A stretch of DNA of 64,000 bases, taken from the sequence record NC_106514.1; one strand, written 5' to 3'. A program made the translations under genes and the position numbers. How positions within the stretch are numbered: the first letter of the stretch is position 1; each line of letters opens with the position of its first letter. The DNA is from Escherichia phage vB_EcoS_ESCO40. The notes under the pieces are model-generated. The model worked only from the letters and a program-made list of their open reading frames with translations. It had not been told where the DNA came from and ran no database searches. Shown in pieces: positions 6,134 to 54,434 of the stretch.

Positions 6134-6162
6134 TTGCTTTCAGGAAAAATTTTCTGTATAAT
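6134..6162 (+). promoter_or_regulatory. T5-type early promoter (P2)
   Basis: TTGCTT-17 bp-TATAAT then AGATTCATAAATTTGAGAGAGGAG. Confidence 0.75.
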
Positions 6163-47432: not shown

Positions 47433-48646
47433 TCTTTATCTCCCTCGGTGGAACCTTGAGGTCTACCACCTTCTTGACCAGATACACCTGTTGCAGAACC
47501 AGCAACGTTAGCAGGAATACGAATCTTATCCATCTGCTCATCATCTAAAGGTTCAAGGTTCAGCTCTAAACGAGCTTCGTTACCAGTCATAATACCATTA
47601 TTAACCAATGAGGTTAAATGTTTAGCCTCAGCTTCTTTATCTGGGGTTAATGCAGCTACCTCCTTAGTATTAGGGGTAATCTTATAACCAAAAAAGAAAG
47701 TAAGAGAACTAGTCAGTTTGTTCAGCATAGGAATGATAGTCATATAATAGAACAATTCGATGTTTGGTCGAATATTCGCATTATTACCACCATCAAGCAG
47801 TACTTGCGGAACACCAAAGGCTAGACAGATAGATTTATTAAATCCTTCGATGTCTTCCTTAAAGTCTAGATCTTTAAAAGAGGATATTTGGGAGTACGGT
47901 TTAGCTTTCATACCACCATCTAGAATCAGGACAGAAGACTGACCCGTACTAGGATTATAATCGAGTTGTAATTCTTCTTGTTTACGCTCACGCAATTTCT
48001 TGTTCAGGATTTCATCCGTCTCAAGAATAAGACCAATCACGGTACCGTTATCGAGGAATTTCTCTTTAAAGTTAAGCATTTTAGAACGCTTCTCGAGAGA
48101 ATCAATAACAGTAGCAACACGAGATTGTCCAGAAATTTGAGAATTTGTGCCACACACGTAACTGTTATCCTTTATAAAGATAATCTCATCTACGCGATAG
48201 TCTATCTGATTATTAAATATAAATTTTTTGATAAACTTATTGGCATCTGCCTCGACCTGCATAAGAGCGGCCGGGACATGGTAAAGCGATGTGCCATCCC
48301 AATAGATGTATGCACAACCTTCAAAAAGTAGGTCAGTGACTACAAGTCTACGGAATGTGCTTATATCCATGAATGGATTAGGTCGTACATTTAAGAGAGT
48401 GTCTAGAGTCTTTGTCTTGATGCCATTGGCATACGTGACAATATTATATTTATCTCCGACAGTATAAGAACACTCCGCCGCACTATCTATAACCATATTG
48501 GCAGTTCGATTGAGAATCTCAATCTTGCTATAGGCTTGTCCAGTGGTAAAAGGCTTACGGTTAGTGCGATGACTAACTGGTTCCATGTCTCTTATAATAC
48601 GTTGACCCGGATTTAACTTTTCAGTAATCCAGCTTTTTAAACCCAT
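47429..48646 (-). CDS. portal protein
   Basis: 405 aa; position between terminase and protease; acidic Gly-rich C-terminus. Confidence 0.75.
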   Translation of the reverse strand: MGLKSWITEKLNPGQRIIRDMEPVSHRTNRKPFTTGQAYSKIEILNRTANMVIDSAAECSYTVGDKYNIVTYANGIKTKTLDTLLNVRPNPFMDISTFRRLVVTDLLFEGCAYIYWDGTSLYHVPAALMQVEADANKFIKKFIFNNQIDYRVDEIIFIKDNSYVCGTNSQISGQSRVATVIDSLEKRSKMLNFKEKFLDNGTVIGLILETDEILNKKLRERKQEELQLDYNPSTGQSSVLILDGGMKAKPYSQISSFKDLDFKEDIEGFNKSICLAFGVPQVLLDGGNNANIRPNIELFYYMTIIPMLNKLTSSLTFFFGYKITPNTKEVAALTPDKEAEAKHLTSLVNNGIMTGNEARLELNLEPLDDEQMDKIRIPANVAGSATGVSGQEGGRPQGSTEGDKE

Positions 48647-49083
48647 TATAAGAACCTTGCGAATCCTGATTTTATTTCAGTCTTGACTTGTGTCTTTTCT
48701 TGAGGATTCTGTAATTTGTCTTTCTGCTTTTGAACCCACACTTTTTGCTTATTAGCAGAAAATAAAGGAGGTTCTTTTGTGTAAACCTTATGTAATAGTT
48801 GGTGATGGTGTACACAAAGGGTAACAGTGTCTTCTACCAGCTCATGCCTATATCGATCATAGAATGCCGTCCTATTTGAAAGGACTGTTTCTTCGTCAGT
48901 GAAATCCAATTGGAGTTCTTTAGCAAATTTTTTAACTAGTAGAGACACCGTATGGTAATGATGAAGCTCTAATTCTTCAGCACAACCGCAGATAGCACAT
49001 TGAGAGTCTTTTTTATATTGACTTTTTATTCCGTCTCTCATAAGGGATATAGCATCGCGTTTATATTTTATATTGCTTGCCAT
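48646..49083 (-). CDS. HNH-type endonuclease-like zinc-finger protein
   Basis: CAICGC...HHYH...CVHHHQLLH Cys/His cluster; start taken at ATG preceded by GAGGAG (track ORF extends to 49170). Confidence 0.5.
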   Translation of the reverse strand: MASNIKYKRDAISLMRDGIKSQYKKDSQCAICGCAEELELHHYHTVSLLVKKFAKELQLDFTDEETVLSNRTAFYDRYRHELVEDTVTLCVHHHQLLHKVYTKEPPLFSANKQKVWVQKQKDKLQNPQEKTQVKTEIKSGFARFL

Positions 49084-49197
49084 AGTGTTCTCCTCAACTG
49101 TATGAATATAGTATACATAATCGTATCGAATTTGTAAAGGGGATTTTAAAATACAGGAATGGGATACCAACTGAGTAGTATCCCATCCTATACTTAT

Positions 49198-50514
49198 TTA
49201 TTTACCACGGGAAATAGAGTAAATTCCATAGCGGAGCGCATCACAAAGGTGAGAGTTAGCATCATGACGTGGTTTTTCACGTGATAATTTCTCTTCACCT
49301 TCTTGGAAATCCCACTTATAGTTCTGCAGTGCATGGATTAATGAGGAACATGAAGCATCTACAATAATCTTACCCTGTTGGAATAGTGCCTGCAGACATG
49401 CTAGGCCATCTAGGACAGATTTTTTAGCTGGAGCCGATGCGATTTCATGCTCATAAGCTAAGTCCTGTCGGAACTGAGCTGCTGCAGAGTCAACAAAAAT
49501 ACGATCAACTTTATAACGATCTATACAGTGCTGAATATAAGCAGCATGCTGAGCTGTAGTTTTCTCCGCCTGCTGGTACTCTTCTAATACATAGTAAGTA
49601 TCCGTATCGTAATGATATTTAATAGTAAGAACTGCTGTAGGATCACGATAACCAACGTCAATACCAAGCAACGTTTCGAATGCTTCATCATCTTTAAAGA
49701 AGTGACGCATACCTTTGAGGTCTTTAACATGATCGATAGCATTAAAGGTATCAAAGATCTGGCCCTCGAATACAGAGAAGTCAGCCTCGTATTCTTGGCG
49801 GAAGTAGTTTTTACTAACTGTACGGCGTGCTTCCTCAATATCATTCAAGTCAGCACGTGGGTTATCACGATATGTACCATGAATAGATACCCAGTTAGGC
49901 AACGTATCATCAAATCCGTAGGCGTAAAACTCTTTAAACCAGTTACCTCCACGAGGGGTGGAAATAAATAGAGCCTTAGAATTAGGTTTATCCAGAGTAG
50001 GACGCAGCTGAACCCTGAAAGCATCACCACCCACGTCGGAAATTGCCGCTTCGTCAAAGATGATAAAATCATATGAACGTCCAACTGCGGAGTCAGCCTG
50101 CGCCGCAGAAGCTAGTTTGAAGAGCGAGCCGTTTGCCAGCTCAATCTCTTTATCTTTGGCGTTTTCACGTTCGGTTTGTAGGCCATACTTCTTGATAAGA
50201 CCACGAATCTGTGACCAACCAATGTTAGCCAGTGAGTAGTTAGGGGCAACTACTAGTACCTTCACATTAGGTTCCAGCAATTTTAGGAACCCAAGTGTGT
50301 ATGCTATAAAGGACTTGCCTACACGGCGTGATACACACGCCGTTACAAAACGATGTCTAGGGTCTTCTAGGGCATTGATAATTGCTATTTGAGGGCCATT
50401 AGGCGTGATACCCTCTTGTGCTAGTATTCCGGAAACAGGTAAACGAAAGAAACGCTTATCTATTCCGAAATCAATAACATCTACTGTGTTAACATAGGGT
50501 CTTGATACTTCCAT
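49198..50514 (-). CDS. terminase large subunit
   Basis: 438 aa; Walker A-like VSRRVGKS, Walker B FIIFDEAA, C-terminal nuclease-like IDVGYRD. Confidence 0.85.
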   Translation of the reverse strand: MEVSRPYVNTVDVIDFGIDKRFFRLPVSGILAQEGITPNGPQIAIINALEDPRHRFVTACVSRRVGKSFIAYTLGFLKLLEPNVKVLVVAPNYSLANIGWSQIRGLIKKYGLQTERENAKDKEIELANGSLFKLASAAQADSAVGRSYDFIIFDEAAISDVGGDAFRVQLRPTLDKPNSKALFISTPRGGNWFKEFYAYGFDDTLPNWVSIHGTYRDNPRADLNDIEEARRTVSKNYFRQEYEADFSVFEGQIFDTFNAIDHVKDLKGMRHFFKDDEAFETLLGIDVGYRDPTAVLTIKYHYDTDTYYVLEEYQQAEKTTAQHAAYIQHCIDRYKVDRIFVDSAAAQFRQDLAYEHEIASAPAKKSVLDGLACLQALFQQGKIIVDASCSSLIHALQNYKWDFQEGEEKLSREKPRHDANSHLCDALRYGIYSISRGK

Positions 50515-50996
50515 TACTTTTTACCTCCAGTAGCTAGGGAAGTAATTAAGTCCATGTAGTTTTGGTCCCCAGCTCCAGCAATAATGTTATTCTGGATATT
50601 GGTCTGATTAGCAGGAGCACGGACAGCAGCTTTAGCTTTCTCTAACTCTACCATCATCTTCATTTCTTCCATCTTCATTTTGTGTGCCTTCCAGAGAATA
50701 TCCATAATATCTTGGTCAGAACCCATGCCAGTTTCTTCTAGCTCTTCTAGCTTACGCTTAATAACCTCATCTAGAACACCAAATAAACGATCCCTATTAC
50801 GGAATCCACTCTCCATAAAAATATCGTTTAAGTAGTTCTTAACTTCACTACGATTCATAATATCTCGAAAAGCAATTTCGGACATTCCAAGGCTACGTGC
50901 GGCAGAAGGCACATCGCTACCACACTGTAAATAAGCTTCAATCACATCCATCCCTTCAGGGGACATAAGATCTGGTACTAATACATCATTTGCCAT
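50514..50996 (-). CDS. putative terminase small subunit / DNA-binding protein
   Basis: 160 aa immediately upstream of terminase large subunit; HTH-like [16 protein letters not shown]. Confidence 0.4.
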
Positions 50997-51006
50997 ATTT
51001 CCTCCT

Positions 51007-52764
51007 TTAGGTAAGGCGCTGAACTGTTACTCTTAATCTAGGTAGGAAAACTGCGCTACCCAAACTCACGTGCATAACTACTCCTAACTCTACATTTCCA
51101 TTTCCTAAATTTTTAACAGTGTATATAAAACTGTTCCTACTTAGAGCATTGTTAGGTGTATATCTAAAAGCAGATGTAGTATGAAAAGGTACTAGATAAC
51201 CCACAGGTAGCGTTAAAATCTGGTGGAATATTGCATCTCCATTACTATAACTATGCGCTTTTCTTCCTTGTACTTGAAACACACCATTATTCCATGTATT
51301 AGCTGGAACACCCGCACAATTAAGATTACCTGATATAACTTCAGTAGTAAGAATTACTGTAGCATTTCCGCCTGGTATACCTAGCCCAATAGTTGATAAA
51401 CCAACGTATCTGTCCCCAGTTCCTGGATAGTGGGGTGTAATATCATCTCCCATATAAGAACTACCTACATTTCCACTAAAAAGTCGAAGTGGAACTGCTG
51501 ATGGTCCCCAAACAACCCCATGTTCATTACCAATAGTATTATTATTTGAGTTTACGTACCATTGTTTACCGGCCCCAAATTTATAAATGCTAATCTGTGA
51601 TTTAGCTCCCCCATAATCTACAGGAGACCACAACCCTCCGTTACTAGATCCTACAAGTTCACACCTTGCAGTGGTGTCCCCAAAAACCCCAGTATACGCT
51701 GCGTTATTCCCTATATACTCCATATCAGGACGATAACCTAGGTTACCAAAGGCATTCTGATTTATAAATTTATATCCGGTATTAGGGAGACTTACCCCTT
51801 TAATTATGAAATTAGAAGGAGATATAAGAATATCAGAACCAGTAAAGGGATTGCCGGAAATACTCATTCCACCATTAGAGTACCTTAAATTAAGAACATA
51901 CCAAATAACCTTAGTAGGAGTTATATTATACCAGTCCTGTAGTATTGTAGAGTCACCCGACTGGTTGGCCAGATTAGTAGTAGATCCCCTACAAACAAAT
52001 CTGTTCCCGCCGTCGTGGTACATAGTATTTACACTACCTGGGAGCCCTTGCCTAACCCCACCATACCCACGTATATTAGAATTACAAACATAAAACCAAT
52101 CATGCCCTCTATGCGCTGCCCCTAGGGGTGACATCCATCCAGGATCCCAATAGTACTGGTTATTCCCATCTACAGGTACTGTGCTACTATTAGTAGGAAA
52201 ACCTAATTGTGCAAAGGCTTCTGCAACAGTAACACCTACAGGAGCTCCCGCACCGGGCCTAACTATACCATGGTATGTACTATGTAACGTAGTACCCCCT
52301 GTGCCACTCCTAGAGATAGATTCTTCGTGCCCTATCGAGGGATTATAATTATAAGTTCCAGATGCTAGACTATTACCGAAGGCAAATCCACTGGTTTGAG
52401 AAACACTAGCAAAAGATCTAAAGGGATCTGCCTGGGTGGCAACTATAGTTTGACCAACTTTACTCTGAGTACCATTAAGAAAAGCTCTGTGAGTACCATT
52501 AATTTCAATAGCAGTTAGTATAACTCTACCAGGATCGTTAGATTTAATATTTACTATATCAGAAGGCATTTGACATACAAAAAACCCATTCCCGGCATTG
52601 CCTAATCCTGCCTCATAAGTACCATCAACTAGAACAAATGGCATATCACTATGAAAAATACTATTATTGTTTGGACTATAGTGACGATTAATGTCACCAC
52701 CAGATTCAGTATTTAAAGATAGTACGGTCTTACCATCGCTATATTTTCCAGCGAAAAAACCCAT
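51007..52764 (-). CDS. receptor-binding tail protein (pb5-like)
   Basis: 585 aa, Gly/Asn/Ser-rich; N-terminus MGFFAGK and C-terminus VQRLT resemble T5 pb5 as recalled; divergent from the lipoprotein gene. Confidence 0.7.
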
Positions 52765-52789
52765 ATAATCTCCTATTATAAAAATGTAT

Positions 52790-52818
52790 TTGCTTTCATC
52801 CCTCTATTTTGCTATAAT
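52790..52818 (+). promoter_or_regulatory. T5-type early promoter (P9)
   Basis: TTGCTT-17 bp-TATAAT then AGACTCATAAATTAGAAATGGAGAG. Confidence 0.75.
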
Positions 52819-52849
52819 AGACTCATAAATTAGAAATGGAGAGATAAAT

Positions 52850-53116
52850 ATGAAAAAGTTTGTAATTGCACTAGTTGCCACAGTTATGTTATCTGGTTGT
52901 GCACCTGCTCCCAAACCATTTTGTACGGGATTTGTAAAATCTTTTGGCGGTGCGGGAGAAGAACATTACGGTCTCAAGGTTCAAAAAGTTCGTATTAAGG
53001 GAGATCGCTTTCCAGTAGTACAGCTCCGTACTAAATTTGGGTGGTGGGATCTCAGTCAGTTTGACCTTAAATATGGTGATTGTAAATTTAAACTAGAGCA
53101 ATCTAATTACCTGTAA
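52850..53116 (+). CDS. llp: lipoprotein, Llp-like (receptor-blocking superinfection exclusion)
   Basis: Signal peptide with lipobox MLSGC; divergent arrangement next to the receptor-binding protein gene. Confidence 0.7.
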   Translation: MKKFVIALVATVMLSGCAPAPKPFCTGFVKSFGGAGEEHYGLKVQKVRIKGDRFPVVQLRTKFGWWDLSQFDLKYGDCKFKLEQSNYL

Positions 53117-53291
53117 TTAGTATAAAGCAAAAATACATCCAAGTAAACTAAATTTTTTATTTCTTGGATGGTATACTGGCAGAAAACACTATATAAAAAA
53201 GTAGAAGTCCTTCTAGGAGTTCACAGGCACGGTCGGTTATGCACAAATTGTAGAATATTTTAAATACCACACTTATAGGAGCATGAAAGAT

Positions 53292-53420
53292 ATGTCAAAC
53301 AAAAGAAAGAGCAGGCGTGGAGAAGTGTATGAAAGTTGGATAAATAGTTTTGGGTTCGGAACTATCCTATTCTTTATTTTCGTAGGTTTTTGGTTGGCAG
53401 CTATGGCGGGGTGGATTTAA
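53292..53420 (+). CDS. small membrane protein (42 aa)
   Basis: ATG 10 nt after AGGAG; basic N-terminus then one hydrophobic helix (FGTILFFIFVGFWLAAMAGW); not in the ORF track because it is under 60 aa. Confidence 0.45.
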   Translation: MSNKRKSRRGEVYESWINSFGFGTILFFIFVGFWLAAMAGWI

Positions 53421-53718: not shown

Positions 53719-53950
53719 TATTATAGTTGCTTTTATTATCGGGATAATCGCGGGAGTTTTCGGAATGACTGCGGCTATTAACAAGCATCGTAAGTATACT
53801 GCGGAAGTATCGCGGGAGATTGCGGAAAGAGAGCGAAAGTTTGACGAGAAACGTGCGGAGTTTGACGAGAAACGTGCGGAGTTTGAGCGGGAGTGGAATG
53901 ATGGTTCAAGAAGTTCTCGGAGGAGATTCAAGATAAATGGCAAATCATAA
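53711..53950 (+). CDS. small membrane protein (79 aa)
   Basis: Hydrophobic helix IIVAFIIGIIAGVFGMTAAI then charged tail with duplicated FDEKRAE. Confidence 0.5.
   Translation: MFSIIVAFIIGIIAGVFGMTAAINKHRKYTAEVSREIAERERKFDEKRAEFDEKRAEFEREWNDGSRSSRRRFKINGKS
53838..53879. repeat. 21-bp direct duplication inside the small membrane-protein gene
   Basis: GTTTGACGAGAAACGTGCGGA occurs twice in tandem. Confidence 0.8.
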
Positions 53951-54434
53951 ACCTCTTCTATCATTAGAAGAATATAAGAAAAAATATGACTATGATCCAG
54001 AGGCAGGTATATTTACTTGGAGTTCAGGGAGTCGTAAAGGTAAACCAGCAGGTAGTAGAAATAGTTCAGGAATATCCCTATCAATGGGTAGTAATGGGTT
54101 GTATAAGGCTCATCGGGTAGCGTATCTATACATGACAGGAGAAGACCCGGGTGAGTTTCTCATTGACCACAAAGATCAAGACCCCTTTAACAATAGATGG
54201 AATAACTTACGTAAAGCAACAAATGCAGAGAATGGAAAAAACTCTTCGGGATGGAAGAATGAGTCTACAGGGGTTAAGGGAGTATATAAACGCGGAGAGG
54301 GAAAGTTCGAAGCAAAACTACGTGTAAATGGTAATAGAATTACCATAGGAACTTTTAAAACTCTTGAGCAGGCTGAAAAAGAACTTAGAAAAGCCAGGGA
54401 GCATTACCACGGTGAGTTTGCAAACCATAATTAA
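53937..54434 (+). CDS. HNH homing endonuclease with AP2-like domain
   Basis: IDHKDQDPFNNRWNNLR HNH motif; GVKGVYKRGEGKFEAKLRVNGNRITIGTF AP2-like segment; paralog of the 19948-20478 product. Confidence 0.8.
   Translation: MANHKPLLSLEEYKKKYDYDPEAGIFTWSSGSRKGKPAGSRNSSGISLSMGSNGLYKAHRVAYLYMTGEDPGEFLIDHKDQDPFNNRWNNLRKATNAENGKNSSGWKNESTGVKGVYKRGEGKFEAKLRVNGNRITIGTFKTLEQAEKELRKAREHYHGEFANHN

Follow-up and report, generated by a model that had tools for sequence, protein, structure and literature searches.

The best-characterised counterpart of the locus described here is the pair formed by the receptor-binding protein (RBP) pb5 and the lipoprotein Llp of phage T5 (PDB 8A8C/8B14, 8A60, 7QJF), which act on the receptor FhuA. 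In the FhuA-pb5 structure, the pb5 loops L1 (tip Gln115), L2 (tip Phe170), L3 and L4 (570–590) insert into FhuA, and jamming of the receptor plug from the periplasmic side by a lipoprotein has been demonstrated only for the T5 Llp–FhuA pair (PMC9586334). A different receptor, BtuB, is used by several relatives of T5, as established experimentally for BF23 (PMC10644984), DT57C and DT571/2 (PMC4728585), and phiR2-01 (PMC8624392). Blocking of BtuB by the BF23 Llp goes back to Mondigler et al. 2006, as cited in PMC4728585 and PMC10644984. DT57C and DT571/2 share one and the same llp gene, and when the DT57C copy is expressed, DT57C, DT571/2 and BF23 plate more than 100-fold less efficiently, with T5 unaffected (PMC4728585); the BF23-type and T5-type Llp have been called non-homologous (PMC4728585, PMC10644984). 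Among Markadamsvirinae, the RBPs form three clusters that are predictive of BtuB, FepA or FhuA specificity, and phage IrisVonRoten, whose RBP sits in the BtuB cluster, in which all RBPs of known receptor use BtuB (Maffei et al., PMC8594841), has been called a BtuB-dependent phage (PMC10373560).

The window, by which we mean the whole stretch of 64,000 nucleotides that was analysed, carries two divergent open reading frames (ORFs) 85 bp apart, in agreement with the preliminary description of this DNA. The features of the locus and of its neighbourhood are as follows:

49198–50514, minus strand: terL, large terminase subunit.
50514–50996, minus strand: terS, small terminase subunit.
51007–52764, minus strand: RBP gene (oad/hrs; pb5 family; predicted BtuB type, IrisVonRoten allele), 585 aa, identified from the ORF list, phrog_4815 and homology to pb5.
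52765–52849: intergenic control region of 85 bp from which the RBP gene and llp diverge, kept in IrisVonRoten, BF23 and DT571/2.
52790–52818, plus strand: putative promoter of llp, T5 early type, with TTGCTT (−35), a 17-nt spacer ending in TGC, and TATAAT (−10).
52850–53116, plus strand: llp, precursor of a BF23-type receptor-blocking (superinfection-exclusion) lipoprotein, 88 aa, identified by its identity to a published Llp and by phrog_1119.
52850–52900, plus strand: signal peptide (residues 1–16) and lipobox LSGC (residues 14–17), Pfam LPAM_1.

Neither ORF is a chance one: the 585-aa product, which starts with MGFFAGK and ends with QRLT, matches phrog_4815 (‘receptor binding tail protein’) over residues 1–585 with an E-value of 1e-273, and the lipoprotein matches phrog_1119 with an E-value of 1e-25. 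Pfam and NCBIfam contained no model for the RBP or the lipoprotein except for the lipobox motif. An AGGAG Shine-Dalgarno sequence lies 5 nt 5′ of the RBP ATG, and a GGAG Shine-Dalgarno sequence precedes llp at 52838–52841. The RBP gene is the first of a same-strand run RBP-terS-terL, an order that matches T5, BF23 and DT571/2, and it is found directly upstream of terS-terL on the margin of the late region beside the terminal repeat, where pb5/Hrs genes are located.

The lipoprotein precursor begins with MKKFVIALVATVMLSG followed by CAPA, with cleavage before Cys17. Its lipobox L-S-G-C, which the preliminary description had already picked out together with the signal peptide, scores 24.1 bits against Pfam LPAM_1 (cut-off 20) and lies in a signal peptidase II signal of the typical kind; the Llp family shows no variation at G16 and C17, nor at C25 and C78. 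The mature protein is predicted to begin at Cys17 and to be lipidated there. The +2 sorting rule for lipoproteins is established, and the Ala at mature position +2 predicts that Llp is sorted to the outer membrane. The Cys25 and Cys78 residues parallel the Cys pair of T5 Llp, which forms a disulfide (PMC9586334).

All 88 residues of this precursor are identical to those of the Llp of DT571/2 and IrisVonRoten, and 87 of the 88 to those of the BF23 Llp. As the sole difference from BF23 (T11A) is located in the signal peptide, the mature proteins are identical. The published cloning primers BF23Llp42-F and BF23Llp-R (PMC4728585) also match the window exactly, at about 52838–52878 and 53279–53299. 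Judged by its sequence, the lipoprotein is certainly a BF23-type Llp. Because it is identical to the Llp of DT57C/DT571/2, a receptor-blocking function is established for an identical protein, and the receptor-masking logic that had been suggested for this gene would apply here, since, according to published work, expression of the identical Llp excludes BF23 and DT57C, whereas T5 is not excluded (PMC4728585).

The sequence preceding llp reads AAAAATGTAT-TTGCTT-17 nt-TATAAT-AGACTCATAAATT, with a TG at −15/−14. The upstream A-tract and the downstream ATAAATT are shared with same-strand sites at 6134, 7160, 8377 and 9743, which precede genes of the replication/early class: one encodes a helicase, another a DNA-binding protein, and two more encode the NAD-ligase subunits, with a D5-like regulator just after them. 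A T5-type pattern allowing at most one mismatch has 10 matches versus an expectation of 3.8 ± 1.9, a count that none of 100 shuffles reached. The element is kept in T5, BF23, DT571/2, IrisVonRoten and IrmaTschudi, and its position coincides with that of back-to-back putative promoters in the annotated records of T5 and BF23. A generic sigma-70 scan of the window did not pick up this promoter because its −35 hexamer TTGCTT fits TTGACA at only three of six positions. Membership of the llp promoter in the early family, as proposed in the preliminary description, is thus supported at the level of sequence, with the timing of its activity taken from the T5 literature.

How far the BF23-type Llp resembles the T5-type Llp is a separate question, and the designation ‘Llp-like’ that had been given to the lipoprotein needs to be divided accordingly: it holds for function, position and architecture but not for sequence, as the mature part displays no direct similarity to T5 Llp. 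An hhalign comparison of the full precursors gave a probability of 92%, which dropped to 0.3% (E 0.18) for the mature parts; the former value was rejected as a signal-peptide artefact because it disappeared when the signal peptides were trimmed. A phmmer search of Llp against the PDB retrieved no Llp at E ≤ 10. A search of 1.84 billion representatives with a profile built from the Llp alignment returned the protein’s own family, a repetitive 541-aa artefact (P0016) and a borderline 86-aa lipoprotein (P0017, E 5.5e-4), but neither a T5-type Llp nor a bridge to one. The mature window Llp matches phrog_1119 with an E-value of 2.6e-16, and mature T5 Llp does so with one of 1.4e-11; this profile may mix both subfamilies. 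The AF2 model of Llp (mean pLDDT 82.7) had no Foldseek match in the PDB, 8A60 and 7QJF included; in BFVD, it matched the phiR2-01 homologue (E 2e-8) and, more weakly, a protein of phage CEC_Kaz_2018 that carries the annotated name ‘super-infection exclusion protein’ (E 8e-3). What the two types have in common is an architecture consisting of a lipobox, about 60–70 mature residues and one Cys near each mature end. The window Llp is a functional analogue and a possible remote homologue of T5 Llp.

These data bear on how the window Llp would inactivate its receptor. One alternative is that it blocks BtuB in a manner unlike that of T5 Llp on FhuA, for instance by occluding the RBP site at the cell surface or by interfering with BtuB assembly. 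The lack of profile-profile similarity between the mature proteins, the absence of any Llp among the PDB matches of phmmer and of 8A60 and 7QJF among those of Foldseek, and the description of the two types as non-homologous in the literature are all compatible with such a mechanism. Their shared architecture and the match of both mature proteins to phrog_1119 point the other way, as does the argument of Van den Berg et al. that jamming should extend to other TonB-dependent transporters (PMC9586334), and we regard a different mechanism as unlikely, although it deserves to be taken seriously. By analogy with T5, the window Llp most likely jams the plug of BtuB from the periplasmic side. The stronger proposition, that both Llp types belong to one fold family of small lipidated β-barrels closed by a disulfide that links Cys residues close to the two ends, with BtuB jammed periplasmically like FhuA, is put forward tentatively and with slightly less than even confidence. 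If it is true, the window Llp would be a test case for a general class of transporter-jamming lipoproteins whose specificity is swapped together with that of the RBP.

The window RBP is a full-length homologue of T5 pb5, with an E-value of 5e-49 to the PDB chains 8a8c_B/8b14_B. Its membership in the pb5/Hrs (Oad) tail-tip family (PHROG 4815) is evident from the sequence. It had been described as shorter than pb5 and different through most of its length, and the alignment bears this out: the protein is 55 residues shorter than the 640-aa pb5, and the identity of the two over the full length is 29.5% (BLASTP), far from near-identity. The HMMER alignment to pb5 spans residues 1–141 and 270–532 of the window RBP. 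Computed block by block, the identity is highest in residues 1–30 (53%), 301–330 (53%), 391–420 (50%) and 511–540 (47%), and the last four residues, QRLT, are common to both proteins. The terminal segments of pb5 are therefore retained, as the preliminary description stated, but the likeness is not restricted to the termini because internal blocks are conserved to a similar degree.

The lowest similarity to pb5 is found in residues 91–210 (13–23% identity), and it is to this stretch that the T5 loops L1 and L2 align, while the segment of the window RBP aligned with L4 falls 18 residues short. The FhuA-contact loops of pb5 are thus not kept, and the loop-aligned patches are also the most variable ones among BtuB-type RBPs. 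This pattern fits a protein in which a conserved part, responsible for the scaffold and for attachment to the fibre, is combined with exchanged receptor-contact loops.

Among its relatives, the window RBP is closest to that of IrisVonRoten (Bas32, MZ501075; RBP QXV80353, superinfection exclusion protein QXV80352), with 576 of 585 residues identical (98.5%), followed by those of DT571/2 (= DT57C; 74%, 586 aa), IrmaTschudi (70%), BF23 (Hrs, 595 aa; 68%) and phiR2-01 (56%). The IrisVonRoten locus has the same gene order, 85-bp intergenic region and promoter, and its Llp is the identical protein mentioned above. At the nucleotide level, its RBP gene is 92–96% identical to that of the window. The BF23 genome (OR083247) shows the same divergent hrs (oad)/llp layout upstream of terS-terL. 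Relative to the window protein, the BF23 RBP is strongly diverged at 91–270 and 451–570, and it has extra residues where T5 L4 aligns; in DT571/2, the RBP gene is only 66–77% identical at the nucleotide level and represents a different RBP allele.

The window RBP very likely recognises an outer-membrane receptor other than that of T5, namely the vitamin B12 transporter BtuB, since it belongs to a branch of proteins that bind BtuB. A different receptor had been anticipated from the divergence from pb5, and this assignment gives it a probable name. Both the BtuB dependence and the receptor blocking are carried over from the literature on identical or near-identical proteins. The allele in the window differs from that of IrisVonRoten at nine residues (N33A, V71I, Q203P, S244N, A398V, S430G, K502R, H504Y and N508G), and BtuB is assigned to it by its relatives. 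Its divergence from the proven BtuB binders of DT57C and BF23 is greatest in the presumed receptor-contact patches.

Could the RBP instead dock on a TonB-dependent transporter with a shifted specificity, either another transporter or certain variants of BtuB, such that Llp protects the cell only partly? Its identity to the DT571/2 and BF23 proteins falls to 33–57% in blocks within residues 151–270 and 361–390, a 6-residue indel is present where T5 loop L4 aligns, and recombination between hrs and llp is known to occur within the module (Golomidova et al., PMC4728585), all of which would be in line with such a shift. However, (i) the RBPs of DT57C and BF23 are just as different from each other, and yet both use BtuB and both are blocked by one Llp (PMC4728585), (ii) every RBP of the cluster with a known receptor uses BtuB (PMC8594841), and (iii) IrisVonRoten is reported to be BtuB-dependent (PMC10373560), which makes a shifted specificity improbable.

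The least credible alternative, that the clade formed by the RBPs of IrisVonRoten, Citrobacter phage Cit2 and the window has FhuA as its receptor, as T5 does, so that a BF23-type Llp would be mismatched to it, derives from the statement that the Cit2 RBP, whose identity to that of the window is 97.3%, shares 96.9% identity with T5 pb5 (NC_005859), from which FhuA was inferred as its receptor (PMC12980165); we rejected it because the identity of these two proteins recomputed with BLASTP is 29.9%, so that the published figure was not reproduced, although the values given in the same source for DT57C (73.2%) and BF23 (66.7%) agree with the recomputed ones, and because it is at odds with the reported BtuB dependence of IrisVonRoten (PMC10373560) and with the pairing of this RBP gene with a BtuB-blocking type of Llp in more than 100 genomes. 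A phage named ‘T5_ev219’ possesses this kind of RBP, at 96.9% identity to that of the window, and a mix-up of names is a plausible cause of the 96.9% figure. The published FhuA assignment for the Cit2 RBP is probably wrong, and we do not count it against BtuB.

With BtuB retained as the predicted receptor, the locus would operate as follows. The RBP would be a monomeric receptor-binding protein that the central straight tail fibre bears at its tip, where it would bind BtuB irreversibly and thereby lead to DNA ejection. The conserved N-terminal, central and C-terminal blocks would correspond to the pb5 scaffold and to the parts that attach it to the fibre, and the segments that align to the FhuA-inserting loops, being replaced or shortened, would be the seat of receptor specificity. 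In the infected cell, llp would be transcribed divergently from its early-type promoter, and its product would be exported, lipidated at Cys17 and delivered to the outer membrane's inner leaflet. At this site, Llp would inactivate BtuB as a phage receptor, so that superinfection is excluded and the progeny are spared adsorption to debris. If the analogy with T5 Llp and FhuA holds, the blocking would take place from the periplasmic side, with the plug jammed and the extracellular loops refolded. We hold this account as a whole, a BtuB-type RBP joined in one cassette with a BtuB-blocking Llp, with high confidence, and, taken jointly with it, we consider it highly probable that the window derives from a T5-like phage (Tequintavirus, Demerecviridae) and that the region is a host-recognition cassette of the BF23/DT57C type.

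The module itself is already known: its BF23 version, which defined both the recognition and the blocking of BtuB, was described by Mondigler et al. 2006, the RBP allele has been sequenced, and the identical Llp has been tested (PMC4728585). The significance of the locus beyond its correct annotation is small. Mild novelty attaches only to the weak structural link that connects the T5-type with the BF23-type Llp, and this link could merit structural work on BtuB-Llp. The practical consequences follow from the predicted use of BtuB as the terminal receptor: resistance would be expected to arise by loss of btuB, with cross-resistance to BF23 and to E colicins, and infected cells would be expected to exclude other BtuB-dependent T5-like phages. 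Such a receptor prediction is useful in the design of phage cocktails.

The nucleotide identity of the region to related genomes, calculated in 250-nt sliding windows, shows that the cassette is a mosaic in which the flanks and llp are conserved and the RBP gene is swapped:

terL/terS flank: T5 91–100%; BF23 and DT571/2 90–100%; Cit2 88–100% (the IrisVonRoten locus as retrieved stops short of this flank).
RBP gene: T5 no match; BF23 and DT571/2 66–80%; IrisVonRoten and Cit2 90–96%.
llp: T5 no match save for a stretch of about 100 nt (72%) at the end next to the promoter; BF23 and DT571/2 96–98%; IrisVonRoten and Cit2 96–98%.
ORFs downstream of llp: T5 92–95%; BF23 and DT571/2 91–96%; IrisVonRoten and Cit2 84–97%.

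Nucleotide homology to T5 is thus absent across the RBP gene, although the terL segment 49500–50249 is 100% identical to that of T5. One breakpoint lies at the terS/RBP junction, near 51000, and the other in the intergenic region of RBP and llp, near 52750; the second of these is the point within the module at which hrs and llp recombine, as reported by Golomidova et al. (PMC4728585), and DT57C/DT571/2 have it in the same place. Over 24.5 kb, the closest genome in the database is that of vB_EcoS_VAH1 with an identity of 91.7%, which makes the phage a somewhat new Tequintavirus. For the cassette, the allele is a common one: 99 phage records contain an RBP that is 95–99% identical to that of the window. 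Further downstream, the window contains a gene for an HNH endonuclease, which IrisVonRoten lacks.

In the paper describing the Citrobacter phage Cit2, an amino acid identity of 96.9% between the Cit2 receptor-binding protein and T5 pb5 is given, and FhuA is inferred as the receptor of Cit2 (PMC12980165). On recomputation against the T5 record (NC_005859), we obtained an identity of 29.9% for this pair. The Cit2 protein is 97.3% identical to the receptor-binding protein encoded in the window, and the Llp lipoprotein of Cit2 is of the BF23 type. The published figure of 96.9% possibly stems from a mix-up with the phage 'T5_ev219'.

The comparison of the BF23-type and T5-type Llp family alignments shows that a signal peptide and a lipobox suffice to produce an hhalign probability of 92% between small lipoproteins that are otherwise unlike each other. 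Signal peptides may thus be part of what holds together families of small lipoproteins assembled by remote homology, for example phrog_1119 ('Cor superinfection exclusion protein'). The sole distant match of the BF23-type Llp profile in the representative library was P0017 (E = 5.5e-4), an 86-residue lipoprotein with the lipobox LAGC, in which the two cysteines are spaced as in BF23-type Llp. This protein may represent a bridge to the Cor-like exclusion lipoproteins of other phages.

Two features lie 3′ of the llp gene:

53136-53170, + strand: 8-bp inverted repeat CATCCAAG ... CTTGGATG, directly 3′ of llp, read by eye
53937-54434, + strand: gene of a 165-residue HNH homing endonuclease (phrog_99, E = 9e-57)

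The arms of the repeat enclose an AT-rich loop of 19 nucleotides, and inspection by eye found no T-run following the repeat. The site that it overlaps is annotated in the BF23 record as a promoter 'absent in T5'. The HNH gene is flanked by the dmp gene and by the small membrane-protein ORFs that follow llp. At the equivalent site in BF23, unique DNA meets the right terminal repeat. T5, BF23, DT571/2, IrisVonRoten and Cit2 lack this gene; phiAPCEc03, VAH1, Shivani and SSP1 carry it at the same position.

Within the large terminase gene terL, the stretch 49500-50249 is 100% identical in nucleotide sequence to T5st0. In the adjoining blocks the identity is 91-96%, and elsewhere the window reaches about 92% against the database sequence that matches it best. 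This pattern suggests that recombination with a T5-like genome took place recently. Downstream of terL lies a further ORF:

48646-49170, − strand: 174-residue ORF matching phrog_3497 (unknown function), E = 6e-69

This ORF also displays a weak match to HNH endonucleases. At its position, T5 and BF23 carry different endonuclease or nicking-endonuclease genes.
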